A stretch of 64,000 nt of DNA from a virus (IMGVR_UViG_3300021255_000122:1-64000); one strand, 5' to 3'; counted from the first letter of the stretch, positions 5,588 to 59,884 are shown. Translations and numbers: made by a program. Notes: a model not told the origin generated them from the sequence alone.

Positions 5588-5657
5588 GCTTGTAAGCACA
5601 TTTCATTTGCTGGGTGGGTAGTTATCCCACAACGGCAAAGAAACGCGCTTAGAACGC
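5588..5657. repeat. dispersed ~70-bp imperfect palindrome, copy 1
   Basis: Arms ttgtaagcacatttc / gaaacgcgcttagaa; core gggtgggtagttatcccaca. Confidence 0.8.
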
Positions 5658-5658
5658 C

Positions 5659-5961
5659 TTAAAATGCGCTTAAATCAATTTCGTGTACCTGCGTGTAGGT
5701 TAACTTTCCACGATAGCCCCTTGACGCAAGTTCTTCCATAAGTTCCCGCGGGGTAAAATCAGAAAGGCACAACTTGCGGTTTTCTGCTCGCAAATCCTCA
5801 ACTTTCTTTTTCTGCTCCTCAATGCGTTGCTGACGTTTTTCGGCACGGTGTGTTTTGTCGCAATCAAGACATACGGACACATAGCCATATCGTCCTCTTT
5901 TGAAATGGTCTAAACTTAATTCACGACCACAACACTTACAAACTTTTGTTTCTGTTTCCAT
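5659..5961 (-). CDS. Zn-finger (CxxC...CxxC) protein with coiled coil
   Basis: CKCCG...CLDC followed by a charged helix. Confidence 0.7.
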   Translation of the reverse strand: METETKVCKCCGRELSLDHFKRGRYGYVSVCLDCDKTHRAEKRQQRIEEQKKKVEDLRAENRKLCLSDFTPRELMEELASRGYRGKLTYTQVHEIDLSAF

Positions 5962-5969
5962 GATGTTTT

Positions 5970-6839
5970 TTATTTTTTAGTTAATAAATAAGCGATGTAA
6001 TCATCCGTTCGCGCAATTTCCTTAACTTTAAGAATGACATATCCATCTTCCACCCCAATCAATTCCTTGATACGCATACATAGTATCTTGCTATTGATAG
6101 CGGCATTTCCAACACTTCCGTCTTTTCGCTTTCCGTCAACGACAGGCACGCCCGTTTCATCATTCAACCACAAACAAACCTCGCCTTTCTTATTGACACG
6201 TAAAGCGGCATATTCGTAACCGCCACGTTTCTGCATATCCGATGTTATGTTTTGATTGAATGTAACGTTGAACTTTGAGCGCGTGTTGAGTGACACCTCG
6301 TCGTTCCCAAGGCGACAAGTTTTCTTGCGTGTGACATCGACAAGTTCAAAATCCTTCAATGGGTCGGCAACGTTGTCAATAGGAATTTTCTTGTCTATGT
6401 TTTGCCTCTTGTGTTCACTTTCAATTATTTTTACTTCGTCTTTGTCCATCATAACGCCGTATCTTTCTGCCGAATCTACACGCGCCTCGGTTTTCCAAAA
6501 CTGTGGGCTATCCCAATTGTGACGTAGAACTTTGCCTTTGCCTTTGAAATTCCTAATATCCGACATTGGGTACTCGCCCAACTTGTCAACACGGTATCTA
6601 TCCCAACGCCGTTGAAAATCTTGCCAGAAATCATACCCGAAATGTGAATTTGTAACCCAATAGAATGCCGACAACATAACGTTATCCGCGTCGGCTTGTA
6701 CAAGATACTCCTCTACCGAAAGCGGATTTTGCTTTAAGCGATACTTTACGTACAAGTTAATGAACAAATCATCCATACCCCTGTCCTTGACAAAGTTCTT
6801 GAACATTGCAATTTCTATTAACGTCATTGTTTTATACAC
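5970..6839 (-). CDS. hypothetical protein, 289 aa
   Basis: Long ORF; no motif recognised. Confidence 0.75.
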   Translation of the reverse strand: MYKTMTLIEIAMFKNFVKDRGMDDLFINLYVKYRLKQNPLSVEEYLVQADADNVMLSAFYWVTNSHFGYDFWQDFQRRWDRYRVDKLGEYPMSDIRNFKGKGKVLRHNWDSPQFWKTEARVDSAERYGVMMDKDEVKIIESEHKRQNIDKKIPIDNVADPLKDFELVDVTRKKTCRLGNDEVSLNTRSKFNVTFNQNITSDMQKRGGYEYAALRVNKKGEVCLWLNDETGVPVVDGKRKDGSVGNAAINSKILCMRIKELIGVEDGYVILKVKEIARTDDYIAYLLTKK

Positions 6840-6877
6840 CTATACGTGTCGGTGCGCCAACTTTAAAAGATTAAAAA

Positions 6878-7108
6878 CTATTTTGCCAAAACGTACTCGG
6901 TGACATACTTGCCCGTTTCCGTCTTTATCTTACAAGCGTTAATATTCAATCCACGTTCGCGTAGGTCGTGAATGCGGCTTGCCAAGCGCATACAACCGAA
7001 AAGGCGTAATGCCTCAAGACTTGTGATTGAATACCCTTTTTGTAGGTAGTCGGCAATCATGTTGCACTGTGTCCTACTTTCCTTTTCGTTTAAATTAACG
7101 TTTGCCAT
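6878..7108 (-). CDS. winged helix-turn-helix protein (HTH_39-like)
   Basis: ITSLEALRLFGCMRLASRIHDLRERG is typical of this small phage wHTH family. Confidence 0.8.
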   Translation of the reverse strand: MANVNLNEKESRTQCNMIADYLQKGYSITSLEALRLFGCMRLASRIHDLRERGLNINACKIKTETGKYVTEYVLAK

Positions 7109-7110
7109 AT

Positions 7111-7560
7111 TTATCCGTAAATTAATTCTCCAAATAAAACAAATTGCATCACACTTTCTGCCTGTGGCAAATCCAAGTTACCCTTGTCCGCATGAACAAG
7201 ATTTCTTGCGCATTCACTAATATAATCGTCACCGTCAAGACAAGCCTGCAATCCGTTCTTGATGTCTTCAAGAGAAACGGTGTAAATCATTTCGAACTCT
7301 TCATCATCCCAAACGTGGGGCAAGTTGCCATAGAACTCCGCATCCTCGGCATACTTGTCAACAATTTCAATTGTCTTACCAGCAAGCAACAAGCGTGCAA
7401 GTTTGTCTTCAAAGCAATCATTTTCGTTCGCGTCTTTCAATTCGTGGTATTCAATACTATCGTAGCGAGCACCAAACATAAAAGAACCATAAAGAGCCGT
7501 GCTAAAGAAGTCAACCAAATCTTCGTGATTGATTTCTAAAATTGTCGTTTTTGTTTTCAT
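7111..7560 (-). CDS. hypothetical protein
   Basis: ORF with AT-rich leader. Confidence 0.7.
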   Translation of the reverse strand: MKTKTTILEINHEDLVDFFSTALYGSFMFGARYDSIEYHELKDANENDCFEDKLARLLLAGKTIEIVDKYAEDAEFYGNLPHVWDDEEFEMIYTVSLEDIKNGLQACLDGDDYISECARNLVHADKGNLDLPQAESVMQFVLFGELIYG

Positions 7561-7599
7561 AATAAATAAATAAATTTTAAATATACAAAATAAGTTTCG

Positions 7600-7634
7600 A
7601 AAAAGATAGGGAGGTTTATACGCCTCCCCGTCTT
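7600..7634 (-). terminator. intrinsic terminator
   Basis: gggagg/cctccc stem followed by a U-run on the minus strand. Confidence 0.6.
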
Positions 7635-7795
7635 AAAAGTCTAACAATACGATATGCAACTACTTTTTCGTTACATTTGGAACAACACTCGCCCTCGTCT
7701 TTGATAGGCCACGGGTTGTGACCCCATTCGTTTTTGATTCGCTTGCCACAAATACAACAAGTAAAGGGCTTGAAGTTTGCTTTAATCCCGTCCAT
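7616..7795 (-). CDS. small Cys-rich Zn-finger-like protein, 59 aa (CCICGK..GHNPWP..CCSKCN)
   Basis: Read by hand; motif pattern seen in small phage proteins. Confidence 0.6.
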   Translation of the reverse strand: MDGIKANFKPFTCCICGKRIKNEWGHNPWPIKDEGECCSKCNEKVVAYRIVRLLRRGGV

Positions 7796-7800
7796 AACTT

Positions 7801-8640
7801 TTATAAATAATTGTTGTACATAAACGCTTTTTTAACTCTTTGAATGTAAGATGCAAGTTTTACCTGTAAGTCTCTACTATCCAAATCATCAAACACCCAT
7901 TTCGTAAACAACGTCGGGTCAATATCCCGATAATCGCGCATCATGCTTAAAACGCTTTGCCTATAACCTTCCTTTGTGGTGATGCCTGACCAATCCCAAT
8001 CGTTAGGATTTTCCGCGCTTGTAGCCAACGGAAATACGTTTCTAAGCACTTTAATAAACACCTGTACGTCCTTGCTTTCAATGTTACGTAGGTTTTTCGT
8101 AATACCTCTTTTCATACTTTCTTCTTTCTTTTGCTCGTTTGATTTTCTTTTATATGATTCAAGCCAAGCATCGGACGCACCACCAAGTTTGACACCCTGC
8201 TGTTTTTTAACTTGTAATGCGCTCAATGTTCTTTCTTGAATTAGTTGTTTTTCAAGTTGTGCTGCGAACGAAAAGTTATTTAATATAAGTTCATCTATGG
8301 CAGTAAGTTTGTCACATCTCAAATCAATTCCCATTGAAACAACAACAAGACGAAGTTTTCTGGGTTTTAATTCGTTATGTATAAGAAGATTGAGGTCAAA
8401 CATTGAACGGCCTAAACGACTAATTTCAGAGACTATAATCATATCGCCTTCTTTTGTTTTTGGCAAAAGTTTTTTACCAAGGTTTCTTTCGGCGTAACTA
8501 ACACCTCCACTTACACCTTCATCTGAAATGATTTCATCCACTTTCATATCGTGAGATTTTAACCATTCGTATGCTGTGCGTTCTTGCTGTTCTGTACTTT
8601 GCTGGTCGGTACTAACACGACTATAAAGATAAACTTTCAT
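7801..8640 (-). CDS. small serine site-specific recombinase (resolvase/invertase family) with C-terminal extension
   Basis: N-terminal YSRVSTDQQ (catalytic Ser), SEISRLGRS, EKQLIQERT; start at MKVYLY 8640. Confidence 0.9.
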   Translation of the reverse strand: MKVYLYSRVSTDQQSTEQQERTAYEWLKSHDMKVDEIISDEGVSGGVSYAERNLGKKLLPKTKEGDMIIVSEISRLGRSMFDLNLLIHNELKPRKLRLVVVSMGIDLRCDKLTAIDELILNNFSFAAQLEKQLIQERTLSALQVKKQQGVKLGGASDAWLESYKRKSNEQKKEESMKRGITKNLRNIESKDVQVFIKVLRNVFPLATSAENPNDWDWSGITTKEGYRQSVLSMMRDYRDIDPTLFTKWVFDDLDSRDLQVKLASYIQRVKKAFMYNNYL

Positions 8641-8656
8641 AATATAAATATATTTA

Positions 8657-8790
8657 TTAAACAAACTTCCAAATAAAACCTTTTGTTTTCTTTCTTTTTC
8701 CGTTACAACATTCACTCAATGATGCGGGGTTTATATCAAGCGTTTTGCAAGCGTCTGATGCGCTATTCCAAATGACGATTCCACTCTGTG
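8657..8790 (-). pseudogene. NUMOD1-type DNA-binding domain remnant
   Basis: WNSASDACKTLDINPASLSECCNGKRKKTKGFIWKF matches the NUMOD1 pattern; no convincing start. Confidence 0.45.
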
Positions 8791-8900
8791 AACTTTGCCA
8801 GCACACGTAACTGACGCTTTGCCGTGTCCTTACTACGAGTGATTGACAACGGCGCATGATACTCGTCGCGAATAACATAAAGATAATTACACTTTGCCAT
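8763..8900 (-). CDS. hypothetical protein, 45 aa (MAKCNYLYVIRDEY...)
   Basis: Read by hand; ATG follows a typical AT-rich leader. Confidence 0.4.
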   Translation of the reverse strand: MAKCNYLYVIRDEYHAPLSITRSKDTAKRQLRVLAKFTEWNRHLE

Positions 8901-9085
8901 AATAGATATAAGTTTAATTAATAATTTGTGGCGGTAGCCGTTTTCGCTACGGCTACAACGATTTTATTTATACCGCCTACCATGTACACGTCGGGCAAAT
9001 CATTTGCCGCCCATACGGAAAATATCACCCGTTAGAATCAATCCAAGAATCCCGATAAAAAGAAAAATAGTCATTTTTTTGCTCT

Positions 9086-9511
9086 TTAATTGTTGAAATA
9101 CTTTTTAACTTCATTCCATGTCCCGTTTACGACAGGGTCGCGGAAACTTACGCTTTCGTCATATAACCCCCAATGTGCATGGTCGCATCCATGAGAACCC
9201 TTTTCAAGATGCTGCACGCAGAACAACACGTCGCCCGTTTCAATATCGCAAATCGAAAACTGGTCGTATAGCGCGCCAACACACGGGCAATTGTTTTTAA
9301 AGAACACATACGTTTTCTCTTTGTCAAACCTTTTACTATCCATAATTGACAACACTTTCACTCCAAGGTTTTTCGTCTTGTTTGCAAGTGAAGAATCTTT
9401 GCAAAACCAATCGTGCCACCCTGCCTCAATCTGAACCTTTCTTGAAGGTGAACTAAAATCGCCGCGCATGAAACGCTCGGCGAAAGTTTTAATATTCATT
9501 TCCATAATCAT
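9086..9511 (-). CDS. conserved-looking phage hypothetical protein (IEAGWHDWFC...FFKNNCP..LYD)
   Basis: ORF; motif pattern recalled from phage/ICE proteins. Confidence 0.7.
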   Translation of the reverse strand: MIMEMNIKTFAERFMRGDFSSPSRKVQIEAGWHDWFCKDSSLANKTKNLGVKVLSIMDSKRFDKEKTYVFFKNNCPCVGALYDQFSICDIETGDVLFCVQHLEKGSHGCDHAHWGLYDESVSFRDPVVNGTWNEVKKYFNN

Positions 9512-9550
9512 TTAAGTTTAATTGTTAATTCGTTCCAATCATTCGTAAAG

Positions 9551-9748
9551 TTAATCCCAAATCGTCATGTCTTCGTCAAGATATTCGTAAACATGAAGCA
9601 CCGTGTCGGCAATATCTTCAGTAAAGCCAACTATCCCTTCATGGGTTAGCCAAGCGTTAATCAAGTCATACTCGTCCATTGATTCGACTTTTTCTCTATC
9701 ATATTCGGCCTCGTCAACCAAATAGTTTTTTAATTCTTCTTTTGTCAT
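9551..9748 (-). CDS. small acidic protein (start MTKEELK)
   Basis: ORF with ATAGGAGA-N7-ATG leader. Confidence 0.65.
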   Translation of the reverse strand: MTKEELKNYLVDEAEYDREKVESMDEYDLINAWLTHEGIVGFTEDIADTVLHVYEYLDEDMTIWD

Positions 9749-9752
9749 AATA

Positions 9753-9905: not shown

Positions 9906-9925
9906 AATTACATGTTTTTTGATTG

Positions 9926-10078: not shown

Positions 10079-10104
10079 ATTATTTATTTATATATAATTT
10101 TTGT

Positions 10105-11030: not shown

Positions 11031-11044
11031 AATATATTTAAAAA

Positions 11045-12461: not shown

Positions 12462-12508
12462 AACTTTGTCTCCTATCTTTAAATTGAAAATAAACCGCTT
12501 TTTCTTTT

Positions 12509-12576
12509 GTGTACGCCCTTAAATATATCTTTGTGGGTAAGTACAAAGGTACACAAATAAAACGCGCTTAAAACGC
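12509..12576. repeat. dispersed ~70-bp imperfect palindrome, copy 2
   Basis: ...ttgtgggtaagtacaaaggtacacaaataaaacgcgcttaaaacgc; closest to the copy at 59812. Confidence 0.8.
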
Positions 12577-12658
12577 TTTAAAATATGTTTGTGGGTGCAA
12601 AGGGCTCGCCCCTTTGTGCCGTGTCTTGAAACACGCCAACACCCAAAAGGGGAGGCCG

Positions 12659-13495: not shown

Positions 13496-13515
13496 TTTAA
13501 CCGTGTTTATTTTGT

Positions 13516-13583
13516 TTGTATTGCGTTTTATTGTGGACGGTGGTACATTTGCCCACCGCCCTAAAAATCACCGCTTAAAACGC
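13516..13583. repeat. dispersed ~70-bp imperfect palindrome, copy 3
   Basis: Right arm ccgcttaaaacgc contains the AAA gene stop; minus-strand core gtgggcaaatgtaccac. Confidence 0.75.
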
Positions 13584-14852
13584 TTTTTTCATGGCTTTAG
13601 CCCAAGCATTTTCCTTATTCTTGAGTGCGCCGTAAATCTCGCGAATTTCGTCCTTTTCAAGACCTTTGCAAACACTCTCCACAATGCAAGCCTCTTTGTC
13701 GTTTTCGTTTTCCACTTCGTCGCGCATGGCTGCTGTAGCGCGATAAGACACTACCTGCTGAATGCCTGTGCTCTTTATTGCTTCGCGAATATCTTCGACA
13801 AAAGCAACAATTTCCTCATTACCCCCTGCAATTTTCAACTCGACTTCATGGCTGTAATCAACCTCGAAGAAAAAACCGAAACGGTCCCGGCTGCTTGCGT
13901 CAATAATCTGACCCGTCACATATTCCTCGTCAGCACCTTTCATTAAAGTGTTTCCTGCGGCCATAAAGCGGAAATTCGGATGAGCGTTAACACGGCCAAC
14001 AATAGGGAAATCGTACCAGCCGTTAGCAAGAGCCGAATTAAGAACAATAGCGGCTTCACTGTTGCTGCGGTCGTATTCATCCTGAAAGTACAGGCCGCCA
14101 TTTGCAAACGCTTTAAAAAACGGCGTTTCCTGAAAATTGCCGCCAGCGTCACCATATCCGCGTACGTCGTGCGCAAATTGTATTGTGGTCTGTCCGTAAA
14201 AATCAAGACCCAGCCGCTCGGCTACCTGTTCTGCCGTGTGGCTCTTACCACTACCAGCACGACCAAACAAATACACGTTATTACCGCGTGCGACCTTTGC
14301 CACAATACGCTCGAACTTTTCACAATAAACCTCGCCTTCTTTTTTCGCGTTTTGGCGTGCTTTCTTGACAACTGCGGAGAACTTCTTTGGGTCATCCTTT
14401 GCCATGCGGTTGAGGACGTTGCAAACAATCTCCTCAACCTTTGCGGCATCCACTGCACCTCCGCGCAGATTCTTAATGGCATTAATTAACGCCTGTTCGT
14501 CCTTTGTGCTTTCGTCGGTGGTATGCACATTTTCTGGCTTGTGTGCATTTTCGGCACATGGTTCTTCTTTCACCTCCACGGCCTCGGCCTCGGCTTTTTC
14601 CGTCGGCTGAGGCTGCGGTTTTTCGGCCTTCTTGCGAGGAGCACGCTCTTTCGTTAAGATAGTCCACTCGTTAGAGAGTGTAAATACCTGCTCACCGTTC
14701 TCGTCCTTTGACTCGTTCAAAATACCGCTCCATGAGTTTGCGAACCTCTTGCCGAGAGGCTTTCCCGTGTTGCTTTTAACAAGACCTCCCTCTACCTTTG
14801 TGTTGCTAACTGCCTTGACCTCACCTGTTGTCAAATTCTTAATCTTAATCAT
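13575..14852 (-). CDS. MoxR/CbbQ/NorQ-type AAA+ ATPase with low-complexity N-terminal region
   Basis: Walker A GRAGSGKS, Walker B YFQDEYD, LNSAL, HPNFRFMAAGN, D.SSRDRF. Confidence 0.88.
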   Translation of the reverse strand: MIKIKNLTTGEVKAVSNTKVEGGLVKSNTGKPLGKRFANSWSGILNESKDENGEQVFTLSNEWTILTKERAPRKKAEKPQPQPTEKAEAEAVEVKEEPCAENAHKPENVHTTDESTKDEQALINAIKNLRGGAVDAAKVEEIVCNVLNRMAKDDPKKFSAVVKKARQNAKKEGEVYCEKFERIVAKVARGNNVYLFGRAGSGKSHTAEQVAERLGLDFYGQTTIQFAHDVRGYGDAGGNFQETPFFKAFANGGLYFQDEYDRSNSEAAIVLNSALANGWYDFPIVGRVNAHPNFRFMAAGNTLMKGADEEYVTGQIIDASSRDRFGFFFEVDYSHEVELKIAGGNEEIVAFVEDIREAIKSTGIQQVVSYRATAAMRDEVENENDKEACIVESVCKGLEKDEIREIYGALKNKENAWAKAMKKAF

Positions 14853-14960: not shown

Positions 14961-15221
14961 TTAAACGACGTTGTACCAGCTATATTTGTCGAAATTGCCA
15001 GCTTTATAGTCAACACCTAAAGCGCGCAAACGGCTCTTTGTGGTCTGTGTCGGCCAACCTGCAAACGTCCAATACTTAACTCAGTCTATAATGCGAAAAA
15101 TGGCATTATTGTGGAGGTACACCGTCAATTCGCCGTTAAAGGTTTCTACTCGCGTGTTCCCGTTCGCCAAATTTTTGCGATTTTTTACGGCCTCGCACAT
15201 GGCTTCCTCAATCTTTCTCAT
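14961..15221 (-). pseudogene. phage gene interrupted by an in-frame TGA at 15081-15083
   Basis: MRKIEEAM...FRIID*VKYWTFAGWPTQTTKSRLRALG...; frame continues 39 codons to a TAA. Confidence 0.65.
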
Positions 15222-15261
15222 AGTTGTAAAATTTAAATAAATGAATAAATAAAAATATAAA

Positions 15262-15306
15262 AAATTTGTGGACGTGTGCAAAACCGCCTCGCACAAATAA
15301 AACGCT
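15262..15306. repeat. partial copy of the dispersed palindrome
   Basis: tttgtggacg...cacaaataaaacgc shares arm and core words with copies 2 and 3. Confidence 0.45.
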
Positions 15307-15406
15307 ATTTTCTTGCATGTATCATAAATAAAGATTCTGCCGTTTTGTCGTGTATCTTTGTTTTGCAACCGCCGCGGCTCTGTTCCCAGTGCTTCCGTTT
15401 TGGTTG

Positions 15407-15414
15407 CAAAGATA
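15407..15414 (-). promoter_or_regulatory. Bacteroidota -7 promoter element TATCTTTG
   Basis: caaagata on plus; upstream of the leftward accessory genes; -33 element not clear. Confidence 0.6.
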
Positions 15415-15539
15415 CGAAAACGTGAGGTCTTCGCGTGTATGTGATATTTTGCAATTAAATCCGTTTTCCGTCCTCCGTTCTGCTTTCGTTTATACATTTA
15501 AGCGGATACGAAAAAATGTAAATTAGTCTATTATCTAAA

Positions 15540-16139: not shown

Positions 16140-16214
16140 CGCGTGTTGCGTTTATTTGTGGCAAATGTATAATTTATCCACTAATAAATAAATCTCCGTT
16201 TTGTGTACGTACAC
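16140..16214. repeat. dispersed palindrome, copy 4 (inverted partner of 16807-16880)
   Basis: cgcgtgttgcgttta...gtggcaaatgtataatttatccac...ttgtgtacgtacac. Confidence 0.75.
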
Positions 16215-16243
16215 AGTGCAAATTCCAGTTAGTGCATGGACAC

Positions 16244-16274
16244 AAAAAAAGCGTACCTAAAAAGATACGCTTTT
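16244..16274. terminator. bidirectional intrinsic terminator
   Basis: aaaagcgta/tacgctttt stem with A and T runs. Confidence 0.7.
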
Positions 16275-16297
16275 GATACTATGGAAAAAATGTAATA

Positions 16298-16645
16298 TTA
16301 CACAAACTTAACTTGGCCGTTTACTTCGAGCGTAACAGCCTCCTGTTGCATTTCGTTTTTGATGCGCTCGGCAATTGCATAAACCTTTGCAAAGTTTTCT
16401 TGCAACTGTGCCGAACTGCAAAAAGAGTAAACAATTGTTACCTCCTCTAATACCGTTTCGCCGTTTGCACATACCCAGCCGCCAACGGCCTTCGATGCTG
16501 TTGCACCGCCAAACATCTGAGCCAGTTCTGTTATTGTGCGCTTGACTTGTGCACTGTTGTCAGTTTGTTCGTTTACATTTACTGTAGAGGGTACATAAAT
16601 GCTAACTTTGCAATCTAAATCAAATTTAAATTTTAAGGTCTTCAT
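16298..16645 (-). CDS. small protein with a probable PII-like/ferredoxin fold (DUF3574-like)
   Basis: FGGATA..AVGGW...GETVLEEV...QEAV pattern; has its own promoter and terminator. Confidence 0.6.
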   Translation of the reverse strand: MKTLKFKFDLDCKVSIYVPSTVNVNEQTDNSAQVKRTITELAQMFGGATASKAVGGWVCANGETVLEEVTIVYSFCSSAQLQENFAKVYAIAERIKNEMQQEAVTLEVNGQVKFV

Positions 16646-16694
16646 AATTTTTAATTTTAAGTATAAATAAATAAAATGTTAACTAATTCTTTTG

Positions 16695-16702
16695 CAAAGG
16701 TA
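16695..16702 (-). promoter_or_regulatory. Bacteroidota -7 promoter element TACCTTTG
   Basis: caaaggta on plus, 50 nt upstream of the 16645 start. Confidence 0.7.
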
Positions 16703-16806
16703 ATCATTTTATTTATATAATGTATTTGTATTTTTATGTTATAAAACATATTTCCGATATTTAACATTGTGTTCGCACACAATTAGTAAATGCAAACAAA
16801 TGTTAT

Positions 16807-16880
16807 GTGTACGCACACAATGCGTTAAATTTATACCAGATATATAACTTATCGTTTTTTAGATTTAAACGCAACACGCG
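16807..16880. repeat. dispersed palindrome, degenerate copy (inverted partner of 16140-16214)
   Basis: Minus strand begins cgcgtgttgcgttta and ends ttgtgtgcgtacac. Confidence 0.7.
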
Positions 16881-18477: not shown

Positions 18478-19062
18478 ATGAACAAGAAAACGAATGAATT
18501 TATAGAGCGTGCGCATGAAATGGCGTGCAATCACGGCTTCCACGACAAAGAGTTAAGTATTGAGCATTGTTTAATGTTGGTGATAACCGAGATTTCCGAA
18601 ATGGTTGAAGCAGACCGCAAGGGAAAGTATGCGCAAGTGGCGATGTATGAAAGCCAAAAGAATACGCCACAATCAGAAAACTTGAAAGAGGCGCATAGGA
18701 AGTTTTGCTTCGAGACTTTCATCAAAGACTCCTTTGAGGACGAAATGGCCGATACGTGCATTAGGTTATATGATACGGCAGGTGCTTTCGGTGTGAAATT
18801 TGAAAAATGGCAACTTGACGCGGACATGGGCGATATGTATTACGACAACATAGCACCAAAGACGTTACCCGAAAAGGCGTTTTTGCTCTGTGGTGTTCTA
18901 ATGCGTGCCATTGAGGGTGAAGAACTTGACGGGATTATTGGTGGCGCGTTAAGTTTTCTTGAACTTTTGGCCGAGGAAATGGATGTTGACTTGTTTTGGT
19001 ACATCGAAAAAAAGATGGATTACAACGAAACACGCAAGAAATTGCACGGCAAAAAGTACTAA
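18478..19062 (+). CDS. MazG-like nucleoside triphosphate pyrophosphohydrolase
   Basis: LMLVITEISEMVEADRK, EDEMADTCIRLYD and C-terminal KMDYNETR..LHGKKY. Confidence 0.82.
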   Translation: MNKKTNEFIERAHEMACNHGFHDKELSIEHCLMLVITEISEMVEADRKGKYAQVAMYESQKNTPQSENLKEAHRKFCFETFIKDSFEDEMADTCIRLYDTAGAFGVKFEKWQLDADMGDMYYDNIAPKTLPEKAFLLCGVLMRAIEGEELDGIIGGALSFLELLAEEMDVDLFWYIEKKMDYNETRKKLHGKKY

Positions 19063-19072
19063 AGCCCAAAAT

Positions 19073-19149
19073 CGTGCGTTCTAAGCGTAGATTTTTGTCT
19101 TTGTGGGCAACTTATCCACCCAATAGGTAAAAACGCGTCAAAACGCACG
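19073..19149. repeat. dispersed palindrome, copy 5
   Basis: cgtgcgttctaagcgt / acgcgtcaaaacgcacg arms; core tgtgggcaacttatccaccc. Confidence 0.85.
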
Positions 19150-19189
19150 AAAACGGGCAAATTTGGCATTTATTTTAAATTTACACATT

Positions 19190-19501
19190 ATGAACAACAA
19201 GAATTACGAGTCCATTCCCGAATGGAAAAAGGATTTAACGAGAAAAATCGGTCTGTTTGGTCTTGGTGACTTGCGCAAACTTGCCCCGATAGGAAACTTA
19301 GGGTATGCGAACGGGTGGTACTGGAACTTTGAAGGCGAAAGTGGGTGGTTTTACGGAGAAATGGAGAAAGCCATTATGGAGGCTTTTCGCGAACAAGGGT
19401 TCAAGTTCGACAAAGGTTACGATAGTGGCTATAGACGTACCGACCACCATTACATTTGTACCGAACTAAACATGCGTTATTCAGTAGATAGTGGGGATTA
19501 A
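19190..19501 (+). CDS. hypothetical protein (start MNNKNY)
   Basis: ORF with AT-rich leader. Confidence 0.65.
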   Translation: MNNKNYESIPEWKKDLTRKIGLFGLGDLRKLAPIGNLGYANGWYWNFEGESGWFYGEMEKAIMEAFREQGFKFDKGYDSGYRRTDHHYICTELNMRYSVDSGD

Positions 19502-20269: not shown

Positions 20270-20272
20270 TGC

Positions 20273-20638
20273 GTGTTTCGTTCACGAGAGCAAATGATTA
20301 TGAACGCACAAAATAATGAAACCCTACAAGCCATGTGCCGTGACTACTTAACGCGGTTGCGGTACATGGGTAGGAAACACGGTATAGATGTTGATGCGAT
20401 TATACGTGCCAACAAGCGCAGGGAATGTGTCGCAACAAACAAGGAGGTTGAAATGCTTTCACGTTGTGTTGACGACGAGAGAATATCACGCACGGAAATA
20501 CCAACAATGCTTGGCAAGTCATATAGAAGATGTTGCGAAGATGAAGATTTTGAAAAAATCAAAAAATTAAAACGAGTTGGTATATACTCTAAGATTTCTA
20601 CTATTTTATACAAAACAAAACGAACAAAAAGGAAGTAA
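20273..20638 (+). CDS. hypothetical basic protein (start uncertain)
   Basis: ORF in packed operon. Confidence 0.65.
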   Translation: MFRSREQMIMNAQNNETLQAMCRDYLTRLRYMGRKHGIDVDAIIRANKRRECVATNKEVEMLSRCVDDERISRTEIPTMLGKSYRRCCEDEDFEKIKKLKRVGIYSKISTILYKTKRTKRK

Positions 20639-21734: not shown

Positions 21735-21748
21735 TTGTGGTTAAAGAT

Positions 21749-21779
21749 TTTGATATATGAAAACATAGTTGTATCTTTG
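21749..21779 (+). promoter_or_regulatory. Bacteroidota promoter (-33 TTTG, -7 TATCTTTG)
   Basis: 19-nt spacer. Confidence 0.85.
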
Positions 21780-21784
21780 CACCA

Positions 21785-22025
21785 ACCTATCAACCATGCG
21801 TTGAAAAGGTAACGGTGGCGTAGTTCCCGAAAGGGTGGTATCTTTTTAGGTATTATTGGTTAATTGCGCCACTTGCTAAGAAAGAATCGTTGATGCGTTG
21901 TCGGTCACAAAGGCGCATTAAGCGAAAAGATATAAGTAATTACTATTTTTGCCTACGGGCGGCATGAAAGTGTAGTGACCGACACAAGTAATGTCGCTCG
22001 TTGGTTTTTTAAAAGGTCACAAATT
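21785..22025 (+). promoter_or_regulatory. structured ~240-nt 5' leader of the HNH-initiator operon
   Basis: 11-bp and 10-bp long-range stems; GAAA and UACG tetraloop hairpins. Confidence 0.55.
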
Positions 22026-22574
22026 ATGAAGAAAGAGTATTTATCGGCACTTGCCAGCCCACAATGGCAAAAGAAACGTCTTGAAATCATGCAAAGAGAC
22101 AACTTTACTTGCCAATTTTGCGGATGTAAGGATAGAACGTTGCACATTCATCACAAAGTGTACGAAAAAGGAAAGAAACCTTGGGAATACGAAGACAAGG
22201 ATTTGATTACTTTGTGCGATAGGTGTCACGAATACATAACCGATGAAAAAAACAATCTTTACGAAAATTTTACCAATGCAAGAGATTGTTTTAGAAAGTT
22301 TGGTTTTAGTGATTCGATTTTTAATGCAATTTTGTGCGGCTTTTGTTCTTTTTTTGAAAGCATAAAAGAACAAGAAAAACTTTGGAATTTTGATATAACA
22401 AAGCAAGACATCCATAATGCTGTTATGAGCACCCAAAATTATGACGATGTTAAAACCCTTGTTAAATTGGGGATTAAAGAAAAGGAATTGGTGAATTTCA
22501 ATTATCCTATTTTTCTTGAAGACTATGATAATGCTAAAATAGATGAAAACGTATCTTTACTTCTTAATGATTGA
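22026..22574 (+). CDS. HNH endonuclease-domain protein
   Basis: RDNFTCQFCG...LHIHH...LITLCDRCH; start MKKEYL. Confidence 0.85.
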   Translation: MKKEYLSALASPQWQKKRLEIMQRDNFTCQFCGCKDRTLHIHHKVYEKGKKPWEYEDKDLITLCDRCHEYITDEKNNLYENFTNARDCFRKFGFSDSIFNAILCGFCSFFESIKEQEKLWNFDITKQDIHNAVMSTQNYDDVKTLVKLGIKEKELVNFNYPIFLEDYDNAKIDENVSLLLND

Positions 22575-22582
22575 TTGCTAAC

Positions 22583-23428
22583 ATGGAAAGAAACGATTAT
22601 ATCACCATCCAAGCCTACATGGTAACGGAACTTGGATTGAGCGGAAACAATTTGATTATCTATGCCCTTATACATGGTTTTTGTAAAGATGGAATACATG
22701 AATTTAAGGGTAGTATAAATTATATTTGTGAATGGACTAACCTAACACGAAACACCGTGATAGCCATTCTAAAGCAATTAGTTGAAAGTGAATTACTCGT
22801 AAAGAGAATATACAAGGAAAATAATGTTGCTTTTTGCGCTTATTCATTGGGTAGTGCAAAAATTGCACCACCAGTGCAAAATGTGGATGATGGTAGTGCA
22901 AAAATTTCACCCAATAATAATATAGATAATACTAAATTGAAAAAAGATAAAGAAGAATCTTTATCTAAAAGTGCAAGCGATGTGGAACTTTTTGAGAAAT
23001 GTTGGATTGCATATAGGAGAAAAGGGAAAAAAGGCAAATCCTTACCGTATTGGAAAAAACTAACTGAAAGTGAGAAGCAAATGGTACTTCCACATATCAA
23101 GGCTTATGTAACAAGTCGTGAATTACAATTCCAACAGGATTTTGAACGATACCTACGCGATAAAACATTTACCACAATCGTATTTTTAAAAAACAAGGTT
23201 ATATACGACCCGACAAAAAATAATGGCGCAACATACATGCCAATATGCGACGGTGCTTTATCATGGAGCGATTATCTTAATTGCTATGTTTACGTTGGAA
23301 TGTACTATGGCCATGTTTCGGATGGATATACCGATGAAAACCGTCCTAACGGCGCAAAGGTGTTTCTTGGTAATGGTGGCGGTTATATTGTATGGAATAG
23401 CGAAACAAAAACTTGGAATAAGATATGA
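22583..23428 (+). CDS. phage replication initiator (N-terminal wHTH, DnaD/replisome-organiser-like helical domain)
   Basis: LSGNNLIIYALIHGF..INYICEWTNLTRNTVIAILKQL; FEKCWIAYRRK..YWKKL; internal DNA repeats. Confidence 0.75.
   Translation: MERNDYITIQAYMVTELGLSGNNLIIYALIHGFCKDGIHEFKGSINYICEWTNLTRNTVIAILKQLVESELLVKRIYKENNVAFCAYSLGSAKIAPPVQNVDDGSAKISPNNNIDNTKLKKDKEESLSKSASDVELFEKCWIAYRRKGKKGKSLPYWKKLTESEKQMVLPHIKAYVTSRELQFQQDFERYLRDKTFTTIVFLKNKVIYDPTKNNGATYMPICDGALSWSDYLNCYVYVGMYYGHVSDGYTDENRPNGAKVFLGNGGGYIVWNSETKTWNKI
22850..22911 (+). repeat. iteron-like direct repeats inside the initiator gene (candidate origin)
   Basis: ggtagtgcaaaaattgcacc (22850), agtgcaaaa (22873), ggtagtgcaaaaatttcacc (22892), then an AT-rich tract. 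Confidence 0.7.
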
Positions 23429-27689: not shown

Positions 27690-27954
27690 CAATGTTGACA
27701 AGTTTAGCGAAATCCTTTTGGAAATGCGCGAAACGTATGAAAAGAAAAATAGCGACTATGGAAATAGCTTTGGCGACACAATACGCGAATTTGGCTACAT
27801 ACCTGCCGTTGCCCGTATAAACGACAAACTAAATCGCGTAAAAAAGATGGTTAAAGGAGATGCGATGAACGTTAATGAAAGTATGCGTGACAACTTGATT
27901 GATATTGCCGTATATAGTATTTTAACCGTAATGGAAATAGATAATCAAAAATAA
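27679..27954 (+). CDS. DUF1599 / nucleotide-modification-associated domain 1 (Nmad1) protein
   Basis: YEKKNSDYGNSF...RINDKLNR...ESMRDNLIDIAVYSIL. Confidence 0.85.
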   Translation: MGNSNVDKFSEILLEMRETYEKKNSDYGNSFGDTIREFGYIPAVARINDKLNRVKKMVKGDAMNVNESMRDNLIDIAVYSILTVMEIDNQK

Positions 27955-27955
27955 A

Positions 27956-28024
27956 GCGTTCTAAGCGCGCAAAAACGAAAGATGATATAGTTTACCGCAT
28001 TTTGCGTTACGTGCGCTTAGAACG
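27956..28024. repeat. dispersed palindrome, copy 6
   Basis: Perfect 12-bp arms cgttctaagcgc / gcgcttagaacg, 2 nt after a stop codon. Confidence 0.85.
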
Positions 28025-28052
28025 AATAAAACGTGGCTTAAAACGAAAGATT

Positions 28053-28454
28053 ATGGCATCATTTCAATTGACAGGATTTGTAAACACGATAAAATATCTA
28101 CCCGACGCGTTGTTGGTTTATGTAGATGAATACAAACGCGGCTACAAGAAACAAGACGGTACGATAGTTAGCGAAAAATATATGACGTGGAAGTGTATTT
28201 TTAAGCCATACTTTAAAAAATACGTTTCCGAACATTTCGGCGACGGAATGCTTGTCGAAATAAAAGGCGAGATAATGCCTTATGCCATCGAAAAGGAAAA
28301 GTTGATAGACGGATATAGCGTTATAGGCCAAACTATCAATATCGCATCATACCCGAAATCTACCGTGAAACGCGAAATAAGGATGATTAAAGATAGTCAA
28401 ACAACCGCAAATGAAACACCCGATTTAGAGGGCTATATTGAACCAGATTTTTAG
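28053..28454 (+). CDS. putative OB-fold SSB-like protein
   Basis: FQLTGFV...WKCIF...GMLVEIKGEI beta pattern; acidic EPDF tail. Confidence 0.6.
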   Translation: MASFQLTGFVNTIKYLPDALLVYVDEYKRGYKKQDGTIVSEKYMTWKCIFKPYFKKYVSEHFGDGMLVEIKGEIMPYAIEKEKLIDGYSVIGQTINIASYPKSTVKREIRMIKDSQTTANETPDLEGYIEPDF

Positions 28455-56151: not shown

Positions 56152-56232
56152 AAATAATGGACAACAGAATATTGACATTAATGATATGTGGCGGCATCAT
56201 GCTGCTGATGTAAAAAAACAATTCTTTATCGC

Positions 56233-56270
56233 AAAAAGCCTTTGTAACTTAATGATTACAAAGGTTTTTT
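56233..56270 (+). terminator. intrinsic terminator after the tail fibre gene
   Basis: aaaaagcctttgtaa/ttacaaaggtttttt. Confidence 0.8.
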
Positions 56271-56322
56271 CTTTTTGTAATGGACTTAAAAAAGTCCAAC
56301 ATTGTTCTTTCTTGTTTTGGGA

Positions 56323-56330
56323 TATCTTTG
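56323..56330 (+). promoter_or_regulatory. -7 element TATCTTTG for the 56.4-58.6 kb cassette
   Basis: Consensus match between the terminator and the first gene. Confidence 0.75.
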
Positions 56331-56391
56331 CACCGTAATCGGTTACACAACGTGAACTTAAATTCAATAACAACAAAACAAGAAAAAAATT

Positions 56392-57372
56392 ATGGCAGCA
56401 GAAATTTATCAACTTCCAGAAGGAAACGGCAATGGTGGCAATGCAACCATTCCTTTCTCTATTCCTATTGGCTTTGGCGGTTATGGGAACGGCGGTATGT
56501 TCGGAAACGGCAACGGCTTTAATTCAATCGCAGACCTTTTCGGCTTGGCAATTATCGCTTCAATGTTCGGTTGGGGCGGCAATGGCTTTGGCGGCGGTTT
56601 CGGCGGTTGGGGCGGCAACGGTGGCGCAGGTTTCATCAGCAATCAGTTGAACAACGATAGCGGACGTGAACTTTTGATGAATGCCATCACGAACCAAGGC
56701 GAAGCATCGAGAACCGCAATACAGACACTTAGCACGATGCTCGGACAGGACTTCAATCTTGTCAACGCGGGCATCCAGTCGGCGCAAAACACCCTTAACC
56801 AAATTGCCAACGCACAAGGAATGTCAACCTTGCAGATGATTAACGCCGTACAATCGGGCGACGCGAACCTTGCAAGCACAATCCAAAAGTGTTGCTGCGA
56901 CCAATCACTTGCAACTTGCCAGCAAACGAACACTTTACAGAATGCGATTAATGGCGTAAACCAAAGCGTTCTTAACAAAGCGGCTTCAGACCAACTTGCA
57001 ATGTGTCAGCAGACCTATGCTTTGACCGATACAATGAACCGCAACTATCTTGCTCTTGACAACAAGATTGACGCGCTTGAATCAAGTCGTAAAGACCGTG
57101 AAATCACAAGCCTTACCGCTCAAGTGGCTAAGTTGGAATCGCAGAACTTCACGGCTGGTATCGTTCAGCAAGCCGTTGCACCACTTAACGCTCAATTGAA
57201 CAATCTTGCAAACGAGGTGGACGATATTAAGTGCAAACTTCCCGAAACTGTAAACGTTCAGTGGCCTAATCTTGTGGCCGTCAATGCAAGCCCCTACGTT
57301 AGTGGTGGTTTCTACGGACAGCCTTGGGGTGGTTTCTATGGCAATGGGTTTGGTAACAACATAACGTTCTAA
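56392..57372 (+). CDS. Gly/Asn/Phe-rich protein with hydrophobic segment, CCC motif and coiled coil (function unknown)
   Basis: GGNGFGGGFGGWGG; IADLFGLAIIASMFGW; KCCCD; LDNKIDALES..KDREITSL. Confidence 0.85.
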   Translation: MAAEIYQLPEGNGNGGNATIPFSIPIGFGGYGNGGMFGNGNGFNSIADLFGLAIIASMFGWGGNGFGGGFGGWGGNGGAGFISNQLNNDSGRELLMNAITNQGEASRTAIQTLSTMLGQDFNLVNAGIQSAQNTLNQIANAQGMSTLQMINAVQSGDANLASTIQKCCCDQSLATCQQTNTLQNAINGVNQSVLNKAASDQLAMCQQTYALTDTMNRNYLALDNKIDALESSRKDREITSLTAQVAKLESQNFTAGIVQQAVAPLNAQLNNLANEVDDIKCKLPETVNVQWPNLVAVNASPYVSGGFYGQPWGGFYGNGFGNNITF

Positions 57373-57398
57373 CAATTAGCGGATAGGAGGTAAAAAGC

Positions 57399-57734
57399 AT
57401 GAGTTGTTTTGGTAATATTACGACAAACGCAGGAGGTATTCCGCTTTTGATTTCAACAACTACAACCGTAGGAACGGAAAGCATTGACATTGCTTTGGGT
57501 TTCCGTCGTATTCAGCCGTTAGGATATTTCACCGTTCGTATTTCGGATGTTATTCCCACGGATGCAACCACAACGTTACCCGTGACTTTGACTTTGAACG
57601 GCACAACACGCGCCCTTACGTTACCTAACGGCACACCCGTAACCGCAGCCGAATTGCTTTCGACGAACGTTATCTTGGTGTTCAACGATAGGTTTAATGG
57701 CACGCTTGCGCTAATGTCAAGAACGGTATTGTAG
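57399..57734 (+). CDS. small Thr-rich all-beta protein (function unknown)
   Basis: ORF in cassette. Confidence 0.8.
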   Translation: MSCFGNITTNAGGIPLLISTTTTVGTESIDIALGFRRIQPLGYFTVRISDVIPTDATTTLPVTLTLNGTTRALTLPNGTPVTAAELLSTNVILVFNDRFNGTLALMSRTVL

Positions 57735-57770
57735 TTTTTAGTGTTTAACAACAAAAAGTAAATAACAATT

Positions 57771-58292
57771 ATGGATTTTTCAAGTTTAGGTAACGGTAAT
57801 CCGTTTTACATTCTTCGTCAAGGAGAAAAGCCGGTATTAGAGGTTGGAACGGTTAAGGCAAAGACACAACCACACGTAAAGTTTCCCACCCAAACGCCTA
57901 ATCTAATGGCAGGTTTGCAAACGCAACAAGTTATTGATATAACCGCTACGATTAACGGAAAGGATGAAACATTTAACGACATTCCCGTAGGTGTGGAAAT
58001 CGCCCAAAAAGGTAATAGCACGTTTAGTGGTAGCCGTGAGGCAATGTTACAAGCGGTGGATAATATGTTGCAAACGTCTAAAAAGGCTTTGGAACAAATT
58101 CCATTGCACAAAAATGTAATTGCCGAATCGGAAAAAATGCTTGAAGTCTTGAATCCACGTTATGCGGAGGAAAAGAAACAGGCACGCACTATTACAGACC
58201 TTGAACGTCGACAGTCAGAGACCGACAAGAAACTTGACACAATCCTTGGAATCTTGAAGAAGTTGGATTCTCCTTCGCCGAACAATGTTTAA
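57771..58292 (+). CDS. hypothetical protein (beta N-terminus, helical C-terminus)
   Basis: ORF in cassette. Confidence 0.8.
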   Translation: MDFSSLGNGNPFYILRQGEKPVLEVGTVKAKTQPHVKFPTQTPNLMAGLQTQQVIDITATINGKDETFNDIPVGVEIAQKGNSTFSGSREAMLQAVDNMLQTSKKALEQIPLHKNVIAESEKMLEVLNPRYAEEKKQARTITDLERRQSETDKKLDTILGILKKLDSPSPNNV

Positions 58293-58313
58293 TCCATATA
58301 AAAACGAAAGAAT

Positions 58314-58550
58314 ATGAGTTACGTAATAATTAATCGGGATGAAGACGACATGATGGGCTTACGTTCACAAATGCGTAGGAACTATCATGGTGGTGAATAT
58401 CGCAACTATGGCGGTTCAAGTGCTATGATGCGCAATGACGGTAGTATGCGTGACCACTATTACAAGATGGGTTATCGGCACGCTATGGAAGATATGGAAG
58501 ATGATGAACAGTATCGCCGCCAGCGTGATAGCCGTGGCCGTTACGTCTAA
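58314..58550 (+). CDS. small low-complexity R/Y/M/D-rich protein ending RRQRDSRGRYV
   Basis: ORF in cassette, followed by a terminator. Confidence 0.75.
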   Translation: MSYVIINRDEDDMMGLRSQMRRNYHGGEYRNYGGSSAMMRNDGSMRDHYYKMGYRHAMEDMEDDEQYRRQRDSRGRYV

Positions 58551-58558
58551 AAAATTAT

Positions 58559-58590
58559 AGGGGGAGGGTGTTTCGCCCTTTCCCTTTTTT
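58559..58590 (+). terminator. intrinsic terminator
   Basis: aggggagggtg-tttc-gccctttccc plus T-run. Confidence 0.75.
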
Positions 58591-58621
58591 CAATAACAAT
58601 AAAATAAAAAGGAAAGGAACA

Positions 58622-59029
58622 ATGATGGAATATTACGTTTATAAAAGTGAGGAAGAAGAAATATACAATAGCAAATACCATTGTCATTTCAACAAAAGAC
58701 TTGCGGAATGGGCAATAGAAAACATGCGCAAGGAAAACCCCACGAACGGAATGCTTGAACCAATCAAGAAAAAAACAATTGAGGAATTTGACGAGTTCTT
58801 GAAAGAAAACAAATTAAGCATTCAAGATGAATCGTATTACGATGCCTACTATCTTTTGCACATGACTTTTGCCGATTATGCAAAATCCTTAGAGGATGAT
58901 AAGCATCGTGCGGCATATATTGAGGAAACCATTTGCGACCCCGATTGTGAACCCACAGCCGTTCTTGCTTGTTTCAAGGCAAAAATGGATTTGATGGGTA
59001 AGCCTATCTTTTGGGAGAAATTTTTCTAA
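58622..59029 (+). CDS. conserved-looking helical hypothetical protein
   Basis: DAYYLLHMTFADY...ICDPD..CFKAKM..PIFWE; start MMEYY. Confidence 0.75.
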   Translation: MMEYYVYKSEEEEIYNSKYHCHFNKRLAEWAIENMRKENPTNGMLEPIKKKTIEEFDEFLKENKLSIQDESYYDAYYLLHMTFADYAKSLEDDKHRAAYIEETICDPDCEPTAVLACFKAKMDLMGKPIFWEKFF

Positions 59030-59040
59030 TATCATGGCCT

Positions 59041-59427
59041 ATGGAAACAACGTATATTGACGTAGATAACAAGTGGGGTATAGTTGTCGTATATGATTAC
59101 GATGTTGATTACGAAGCAAATGACCTTTTGGCTATCATGCGTAGTTTTGGTATGACAAGAAAAAACGCCAATCGTGCGCTAAACATTTTGTCTAACTACA
59201 ACACGGGTATGTCCATTTCGAACGACGATTTGCGTATGAGTGCCATCTTCATAAGCAAGGCAACAAACAATAGCGAGTTTTGGTCAACGGCGATACACGA
59301 ACTAAAACATACCGCTGATGCAATTATAACGTATTACGGTGTGGATTGGGACGGAGAAGATGCTGCATACCTTACTGGCTATCTCACAAAAGAAATGGTG
59401 GAAGAAATTGGAGAACCATGTTATTAA
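59041..59427 (+). CDS. putative zincin-like metallopeptidase
   Basis: AIHELKH (HExxH) with downstream GEDAAYL. Confidence 0.6.
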   Translation: METTYIDVDNKWGIVVVYDYDVDYEANDLLAIMRSFGMTRKNANRALNILSNYNTGMSISNDDLRMSAIFISKATNNSEFWSTAIHELKHTADAIITYYGVDWDGEDAAYLTGYLTKEMVEEIGEPCY

Positions 59428-59447
59428 TCACATAAACAAACAAAAAA

Positions 59448-59819
59448 ATGGAAAAAGAAAAATTAATGGTCGAATACAAGGTTACGCTTGAAAGCCTTGT
59501 CGAGAAAACAAAGTTCGTTTATAGCGAGGAATTTTACAAGTTAGACGAATTTGAAAAACAAAAGTTCACTAAAGACAAGATGGCAACCGAGGGGCATTTA
59601 AGCACTTTGTGTAACTTGCTTTGGGGTGAAAAGGTGCAATTTGGTGGTGGCGTTACCGATATGTTTGCACTTGGTATTATAAGTTCTATGTTTGGGTATA
59701 ATGGGCTTTGGGGTGGCAACACGTCAAGTACCGACTACCTAAAGAAAGCACTTGATGATGAAAAGGAAAAGCAAGATGAGGTTTACGTAGTGCCAACGAA
59801 CGAAAATAAAGCCGTGTAA
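59448..59819 (+). CDS. hypothetical protein
   Basis: ORF; its stop codon lies inside palindrome copy 7. Confidence 0.7.
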   Translation: MEKEKLMVEYKVTLESLVEKTKFVYSEEFYKLDEFEKQKFTKDKMATEGHLSTLCNLLWGEKVQFGGGVTDMFALGIISSMFGYNGLWGGNTSSTDYLKKALDDEKEKQDEVYVVPTNENKAV

Positions 59820-59884
59820 GCGCGTTTTATTTCTTTTGTGGTAACTTGTACGTTAGGGTACATAAAAAGCCGTTACAACGCACG
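59812..59884. repeat. dispersed palindrome, copy 7
   Basis: gtgtaagcgcgtttt...ttgtggtaacttgtac...aaagccgttacaacgcacg. Confidence 0.8.

Follow-up and report, generated by a model that had tools for sequence, protein, structure and literature searches.

The 64,000-nucleotide stretch of viral DNA analysed here (the window; IMGVR_UViG_3300021255_000122) contains six copies of a family of nested palindromes, about 80-100 bp each, which lie at the ends of genes. The family is specific to a clade of uncultured Bacteroidota phages and was previously undescribed. Its base pairing is conserved, its copies are tied to stop codons and to the 3' ends of genes, and they are found in excess at junctions whose neighbouring genes are not conserved; promoter features are absent, and the phage carries a gene for a RecT-family protein. 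Our tentative proposal, in which all function is inferred from these patterns, is that the element is a transcribed hairpin which marks the 3' ends of cistrons and whose conserved arms may also provide short homologies for the exchange of modules, in the manner of the promoter-early stem-loop (PeSL) cassettes and the REP elements.

Phage genome and related contigs

The window corresponds to bases 1-64000 of an 80,227-bp phage genome from the IMG/VR database (G000), which has 22-bp terminal repeats. The genome is of the siphovirus type and encodes a large terminase subunit and a tape measure protein of 1,941 aa. The closest cultured relative is Bacteroides phage C3_41T2LP (terminase identity 53%); no DNA match to GenBank phages was obtained by megablast or blastn. 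Concerning the genome organisation, genes run leftward from ~17.7 kb and rightward at ~17.9-28.9 kb; these two early arms diverge at ~17 kb, at the switch of the GC skew, and the structural and late genes occupy 29-59.8 kb. The TAnnTTTG box, a -7 promoter box of the Bacteroidota type, is numerous in the genome. Related IMG/VR contigs were retrieved by means of the ATPase and terminase proteins, and 17 of them were taken in full. One relative, G001, has a DNA identity of 80-87% to the window phage and contains four orthologous copies of the element, while more distant genomes (terminase identity 72-81%) contain one to six copies each.

Members of the family

We used a profile hidden Markov model (HMM) built on the 5' half of the element (nhmmer, E up to 10) and a covariance model (R1, E up to 1) to decide which sites belong together (Table 1). 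The family is real, and its membership differs from the preliminary description, which had listed nine sites: six of them are copies, since both models recover these six and neither recovers the other three (16140-16214, 16807-16880 and 15262-15306). The site at 16140 has only the T-run and the apex in common with the family, and the supposed partial copy at 15262 lies within an ORF. The copies at the six sites align better than shuffled hairpins, and the family stands.

Five exact occurrences of the 12-mer GCGTTYTAAGCG are found in the 80,227-bp genome, at 5646-5657(-), 12565-12576(-), 13572-13583(-), 19076-19087(+) and 27956-27967(+), against a chance expectation of ~0.01 (estimated from base composition) and none for the reversed pattern used as a control. 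A sixth copy, mirrored and with one mismatch, is found at 28014-25 and is the second arm of the 27956 element. When folding is compared with shuffles, four copies have z values of -3.3 to -5.6 and the copy at 12509 is marginal (-2.0), whereas the sites at 59812, 16140 and 16807 fold no better than shuffles.

Table 1. Copies of the palindrome family in the window, and listed sites which are not members
Feature	Position	Strand	Evidence
Best copy	5571-5667	-	Covariance model 78.5 bits, E 1e-16; nhmmer E 2e-10; fold -30 kcal/mol, z -4.9
Weaker copy	12491-12586	-	nhmmer E 1e-6; covariance model 25.2 bits, E 0.013; z -2.0
Copy over the AAA-ATPase stop	13497-13593	-	nhmmer E 1e-6; covariance model only 18.9 bits, E 0.63; z -3.3
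Copy between the pyrophosphatase-like gene (18478-19062) and ORF 19163-19501	19066-19161	+	Covariance model 33.2 bits, E 1e-4; z -3.6
Most perfect palindrome	27946-28042	+	Covariance model 69.9 bits; z -5.6; inverted repeat 12/12, 44 nt between arms
Degenerate copy at the late-operon end; weak but real member	59802-59896	+	Covariance model 38.5 bits, E 4e-6; nhmmer E 0.003
Not a member (supposed partial copy)	15262-15306		Inside ORF 15081-15497; no HMM or covariance-model match
Separate inverted pair, not of the family	16140-16214 and 16807-16880		15/15 exact box on opposite strands; no HMM or covariance-model match

Looking at each copy separately, the outer TTTTAAG arm of the 5571-5667 copy (99% identical in G001) supplies the TAA stop of an endonuclease VII-like open reading frame (ORF; 5659-5961). 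The 12491-12586 copy lies 83 nt past the stop of the DUF7192 gene, has the middle stem TTGTGTAC / GTACACAA, and is an island of 78% identity to G001 with unaligned flanks. In the 13497-13593 copy the core TAA is the stop of the AAA-ATPase gene (13575-14852). The 19066-19161 copy is 100% identical to G001 over 91 nt, its flanks being 82-85% identical. The 27946-28042 copy has a 14-bp outer stem with the motif in both arms, and is located between the DUF1599 gene (stop 27954) and a gene with a single-stranded DNA-binding protein (SSB) fold (28053-28454); orthologous copies upstream of the same SSB-like gene are found in G001, G005, G009, L199, L227 and L269. The 59802-59896 copy retains the 5' arm, with the stop of ORF 59448-59819 inside it, and the apex; its 3' part merges into a canonical hairpin-plus-U terminator (~59875-59915). 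The structural operons contain no copy, as had been noted before, this degenerate one being at the late operon's end. The distances to stop codons quoted in the preliminary description agree with the ORF map.

The ORF at 5659-5961(-) encodes 100 aa and matches endonuclease VII / HNH proteins in PHROG (E 4e-9), which are nucleases of a type that cuts junctions or cruciforms. The stop of this ORF is inside the arm of the best palindrome copy, and the same is seen in G001 and G010.

Anatomy and conserved pairing

The anatomy was derived from an alignment of 41 non-redundant copies of this and the related genomes. The 5' half consists of the outer TTTTAAG, the arm sCGTTYTAAGCGC, rTTT with a T-rich stretch, and the GTGG of the apex. 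The apex is formed by GTGG, a loop of 7-9 nt (consensus nWAAnTWWW) and CCAC. In the 3' half an A-rich stretch is followed by the mirrored arm GCGCTTArAACGs, or the variant GCGCyCTACGGGC, and by CTTAAAA. TAAG units recur every 10-11 nt as TTTTAAG / TTYTAAG repeats, and the arms therefore contain TAA in two or three frames; stops in at least two frames are found in the arms of 78% of the elements, compared with 40% of control windows.

Covariation was measured on the covariance-model alignment of 112 matches with a hand-given structure. Standard pairs occupy 73% of the cells, as against 66% in shuffles and 40-56% when the partners are slid, and the covariation score is 0.255 (shuffles 0.156, slid 0.06-0.09). 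Double changes are present at all 21 of the 21 pairs. Three further observations concern the stems. Interior stems of different loci are unrelated in sequence and are still complementary, which is independent of the covariance-model alignment; orthologous copies show compensatory stem changes (e.g. T-A to C-G, G000 13583 vs G002 2509); and in some copies the GTGG/CCAC of the apex is swapped for CTTG/CAAG or GCGG/CCGC around the same loop. For these reasons the sequence comparisons indicate that the pairing itself is under selection. No consensus structure emerged from MAFFT and RNAalifold for 30 copies, as MAFFT misaligned their 3' arms, and Rfam 15 has no match in the window at the gathering score.

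Position at gene ends

In 26 of 45 elements the upstream stop is at most 15 nt from the arm or inside it, and the modes of the stop position (-8, -3 and +2) are the TAAs of the arms. A stem-loop is situated between the upstream stop and the downstream start codon. With regard to junction type, 25 elements are found at co-directional, 11 at convergent and 2 at divergent junctions; the convergent to divergent ratio of 11:2 differs from the baseline of 99:101 (p 0.012). All seven genomes examined at the late operon's end have a copy there in sense orientation, and in five of these, the window phage included, the copy merges into a canonical hairpin-plus-U terminator.

Mosaic junctions and recombination genes

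That breakpoints in gene content should coincide with copies had been set beforehand as a check, and it was borne out. For a conserved gene beside an element, we asked if the gene across the element is the same in other genomes; this one-sided neighbour test replaced a first adjacency test, which had only four usable junctions. Mean neighbour conservation across elements is 0.11, compared with 0.43 for all junctions (p 1e-4) and 0.27 for element-free junctions with gaps of at least 60 nt (p 0.012). The unit of the element and the SSB-fold gene follows five different upstream genes in different genomes. A 93%-identical element is placed after the endonuclease VII-like gene in G010, and in G008 another gene precedes it. 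These two cases hint indirectly at recombination between copies. The conserved ATPase/DUF7192 junction varies in what it contains: G000 and G002 carry the element, G007 a degenerate copy and six further genomes a hairpin of another kind, and in five there is nothing. No neighbouring gene is common to the motif-bearing loci.

Concerning recombination genes, a RecT-family single-strand annealing protein is encoded at 72886-73509(-), outside the window (131.6 bits), and a small serine recombinase at 7801-8715. The Y1 (RAYT) transposase PF01797 is absent from the 80-kb genome, and so is the tyrosine recombinase/integrase PF00589. In C3_41T2LP, a YqaJ-type recombinase gene is found two genes from the RecT gene.

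The preliminary description had proposed cassette exchange at attC-like sites. The exchange part is consistent with the breakpoint association and the encoded RecT protein; the attC-like mechanism is not supported, as there is no tyrosine recombinase and the arms do not fit the attC cores. Target-site duplications, which had also been suggested, were not found, and neither were empty sites, within 300-nt flanks among the 18 genomes.

Distribution across phages and bacteria

Based on covariance-model and HMM matches, about 45-60 loci are distributed over 16 of the 18 related phage genomes, with one to six copies per genome. The cultured, more distant phage C3_41T2LP has no copy. An IMG/VR-wide 16-mer scan gave more than 117 contigs, part of them chance matches; the apex box stands at the same offset (23 +/- 1) in 10 of 70 non-redundant matches, which is above the 99th percentile of controls. 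Several of these offset-keeping matches are wider relatives of the window phage, with proteins 35-70% identical. Copies are also present in related contigs of different G+C content.

The same type of 16-mer scan over 185,579 bacterial and archaeal species genomes gave at least 120 matches, spread over all phyla. Among the 120 matches listed only one is family-like, and an origin from host chromosomes was rejected on this basis. A literature search by motif letters and keywords found no paper containing the motif.

Proposed function and alternative explanations

According to the reading which we tentatively favour, the element would form, within a polycistronic mRNA, a long stem-loop with interruptions, located over the upstream stop codon or immediately after it. 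This structure would delimit the cistron at its 3' end and might act on the message as a barrier to 3' exonucleases, as a processing site for a double-strand RNase or as a leaky attenuator. The TAA triplets of the arms would close any incoming reading frame. As DNA, the conserved arms of ~25 nt and the apex, common to many genomes, would provide short homologies; since the element is shared between genomes, the arms could serve RecT in this way, and a RecT-type annealing system may exchange, delete or insert genes at these points.

Several observations weigh against this reading. The stronger arm faces the direction of transcription in 5/5 copies of this genome and in only 11/23 across the clade, so strict sense orientation was rejected; the occurrence in both orientations given in the preliminary description does not apply to this genome, where all six members have their better arm on the sense strand, and does apply to the clade. 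Folding favours the sense strand by 3.9 kcal/mol; as element-free intergenic regions also favour it, by 2.8 kcal/mol, the bias is not specific to the element and is not diagnostic of a sense-strand RNA. The hairpin is not followed by a U-run on the sense strand; its 3' flank is A-rich in all copies of the window, in agreement with the lack of U-tails reported before. Since canonical hairpin-plus-U terminators do exist elsewhere in the phage (56233-56270 and ~59875-59915), the element is not a standard intrinsic terminator. No recombinant, mini-circle or empty site with matching flanks was found. With regard to the statistics, those of the junctions derive from naive ORF calls and from partly orthologous, non-independent loci, and the covariation was counted on an alignment which had been fitted to the model, in which many loci are represented by both strands and the rows are related. 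Finally, the arms and the apex loop are conserved in sequence beyond the needs of a stem, which would suit a DNA palindrome bound by a protein.

Such a protein-bound palindrome and a purely selfish repeat are the serious rivals of the transcribed hairpin. In the former, which we consider unlikely, a symmetric phage protein that forms oligomers would bind the element as double-stranded DNA; it could be a regulator, could block transcription as a roadblock or could organise the genome, and its contacts would be the two arms (TAAG repeats ~10-11 bp apart) and the palindromic apex. The conservation of the arms and the apex loop in sequence, and not in pairing alone, fits this explanation, as do the spacing of the repeats, the use of either orientation across the clade and the late-operon copy, in which the 5' half persists and the 3' arm is missing. 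Helix-turn-helix (HTH) proteins are encoded, and the candidates are a DnaA-domain-IV-like one (62516-63010) and an HTH_36 protein (22571-23428). A binding site would not need the compensatory changes and the unrelated interior stems, however; the element is dispensable at an orthologous junction, and no protein is tied to it by neighbourhood. The operator role proposed earlier belongs here: it is weakened by the avoidance of divergent promoter regions and by the lack of a promoter motif inside the elements, and is otherwise retained.

The selfish alternative, which we rate as rather improbable, is a REP/MITE-like mobile palindrome with no function for the phage, found at 3' ends because insertions are tolerated there. 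The varying presence at the ATPase/DUF7192 junction, near-identical copies in different contexts, the variable copy number and the occurrence in contigs of different G+C content all agree with it; either orientation and rarity at divergent junctions are also known for the REPs of Escherichia coli. Against it, a Y1/RAYT transposase and a tyrosine recombinase are absent, target-site duplications or empty sites with matching flanks were not seen, orthologous copies are kept while the proteins of neighbouring genes have diverged to 43-54% identity, and the copies evolve more slowly than their flanks. The single family-like case among the bacterial matches listed also speaks against it. The REP/MITE-like role of the preliminary description fits the observed location, orientation and variable presence at one orthologous junction.

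The preliminary description had also drawn attention to cores resembling DnaA boxes and to a possible priming role of the hairpin. An explanation of this kind, in which the element is a single-stranded DNA hairpin that signals priming or the loading of the replisome on the lagging-strand template, or is an attC-like site, with the apex perhaps read by host DnaA or by the phage DnaA-like HTH protein, is in our view highly improbable. At the level of the family the resemblance is statistical: 10/41 apexes are within one mismatch of TTATCCACA, compared with 3/534 control windows. All copies of this genome have the same polarity relative to the arms diverging at ~17 kb, an SSB-fold gene follows the most conserved copy, and the 62516-63010 protein matches Bac_DnaA_C weakly (at 22.2 bits, under the cut-off of 31.5 bits). 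In the window as a whole, however, one-mismatch DnaA-box matches are not enriched (26 vs 19.3 +/- 4.8), and the only perfect box (62053) lies outside any element. The resemblance is not very improbable by chance, because an element offers ~60 offsets; the consensus would come within two mismatches of the given 9-mer with a probability of ~0.15, a rough estimate. The relaxed box TTWTNCACA fits only 1/41 apexes and GTGG/CCAC covaries or is swapped, which suggests that the pairing, not the box, is kept. The polarity is not kept across the clade, and a tyrosine recombinase is missing. Beyond resemblance, the sequences lend no support to a binding of DnaA or of the 62516-63010 protein to the apex.

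We also considered a promoter specific to the phage, in which the 12-mer would be the upstream box and the apex an extended -10, because of the fixed spacing of the two (offset 23 +/- 1 in independent contigs), TGnTAnnnT in some copies and the sense orientation of all copies in this genome. It was rejected as very improbable, given that the would-be -12/-11 positions (T, A) are among the least conserved, that TAnnnT is at the fixed offset in 18/41 copies and TAnnTTTG is absent, that the phage encodes no sigma factor, that 11 copies are at convergent ends and 2 at divergent junctions, and that a promoter would account neither for the palindrome nor for its covariation.

The transcribed hairpin may be taken one step further, although we regard this step as doubtful: the palindromes could be the dedicated 'linker' sequences of the modular theory of phage evolution, a clade-wide set of hairpins which can be carried from boundary to boundary and which a specific phage protein reads or RNA processing acts on. 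They would insulate early cistrons and, together with RecT, determine the points of cut-and-paste of modules between genomes. If so, the mosaic structure of this uncultured phage group would be partly programmed and not accidental. Boundary elements which join the punctuation of expression with short homologies are among the few concrete mechanisms proposed for phage mosaicism. In practical terms, the covariance model is a sequence handle for finding module boundaries in metagenomic phage genomes, and the family is a candidate cis-element for multi-gene expression control in Bacteroides, where the rules for ribosome binding and terminators differ from those of E. coli.

Inverted pair at 16140-16880 and other features

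The two sites at 16140-16214 and 16807-16880 form an inverted pair. Each end has the box CGCGTGTTGCGTTTA, then ~46 nt, then the palindrome GTGTACGYACAC; the pair brackets ORFs 16298-16645 and 16657-16782 (41 aa) in an AT-rich divergent early control region. Palindromes of the GTGTACGYACAC type are found at 16203, 16769 (a near-palindrome) and 16807. ORF 16298-16645 has a weak S-AdoMet-lyase-like Pfam match (E 0.008). In G001, TTGTGTGCGCACACAA was counted six times on the two strands (three sites if all are full palindromes), and in G004 GTTTCACGTGAAAC was counted four times. Judging by their sequences, the palindromes of the pair and these counterparts look like lineage-specific operators of an early regulator.

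The gene at 28053-28454(+) encodes a 133-aa protein without a Pfam or PHROG match; the true start is ATG 28053 and not TTG 28002. The model of the protein has a predicted OB domain of the bacterial SSB type (pLDDT, predicted local distance difference test, 79), all top Foldseek matches are SSBs (E 1e-6), and the protein ends in an SSB-like acidic tip (...PDF). The predicted structure indicates that it is a second phage SSB, always preceded by a copy of the element.

Some other regions are also strongly structured. Between the stop of the DUF7192 gene and the element at 12576, three further short G+C-rich hairpins are found at 12577-12658(-), one of them CAAAGGGGCGAGCCCTTTG; the 197-nt spacer after this stop is unusually structured (-0.27 kcal/mol per nt). 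In the rightward early arm, the intergenic regions 20270-20387 and 21735-21974 (+) fold strongly (-0.33 and -0.27 kcal/mol per nt, respectively) and are unrelated to the family in sequence; the latter starts after the promoter box TATCTTTG at 21772. Outside the window, the intergenic region at 75330-75439(-) of the phage genome folds as a tRNA-like cloverleaf with the T-arm GGTTCGATTCC.

Comparison with known systems

Integron attC sites are folded as single strands and have the cores RYYYAAC...GTTRRRY. The element is similar in being an imperfect palindrome with a variable interior and conserved outer inverted cores right after an ORF; it differs in its arms (GTTCTAAG...CTTAGAAC), which do not fit these cores, and in the absence of a tyrosine integrase and of a cassette array. 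The stoperators of cluster A mycobacteriophages (e.g. L5) are single short sites without a hairpin, ~24-30 per genome, which are bound by the immunity repressor. They share with the element a 12-13-bp asymmetric motif at gene boundaries, oriented with transcription (for the element, in this genome). In the element, by contrast, this motif makes up one arm of a palindrome; relatives do not preserve its orientation, and no repressor is linked to it.

The RNase III sites of the T7 early region are strictly sense-oriented, and their cleavage is experimentally proven. As with the element, they are hairpins scattered between cistrons of the early mRNA, similar in size, with an internal loop, with sequence shared among copies and without a U-tail; the orientation of the element, in contrast, varies across the clade. 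The modelled structure of the element is compatible with an interrupted stem of ~20 bp or more, as in a T7-type RNase III site. RNase III is not encoded by the phage genome, whereas the Bacteroides thetaiotaomicron genome used as a control has a gene for it; any RNase III processing would need a host enzyme.

REP/BIME elements of enterobacteria are chromosomal, 35-40 nt long, present in hundreds of copies and mobilised by RAYT, and are reported to stabilise the 3' ends of mRNA. The likeness lies in imperfect palindromes of transcribed 3' regions, which are found at co-directional and convergent and rarely at divergent junctions, in either orientation and with variable presence. The element differs in being phage-borne and 80-100 nt long, in the absence of a RAYT gene from the genome, and in the single family-like case among the 120 bacterial matches listed.

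The PeSL cassettes were described in the T4-type phages RB49 and phi1 (Arbiol et al. 2010, PMC2839356). They are present in ~50 copies per genome and contain a strong sigma70-type promoter, and their stem-loops have been shown to terminate transcription (PMC2839356). Both PeSLs and the element are repeated intergenic units which start at the upstream stop and contain a stem-loop; both are concentrated in plastic early regions beside variable genes, and modular shuffling by recombination between copies has been proposed for both. Unlike PeSLs, the element has no promoter motif, is present in one to six copies per genome and is a long nested palindrome with conserved arms.

By analogy, the element would work most like the PeSL cassettes and the REP elements; it belongs to neither, because the PeSL promoter is absent and the genome has no RAYT. 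Boundary elements of this kind are experimentally documented almost only for the PeSLs of T4-type coliphages, and a further family in Bacteroidota siphophages, built differently and not related to the PeSLs, would suggest a recurring solution.

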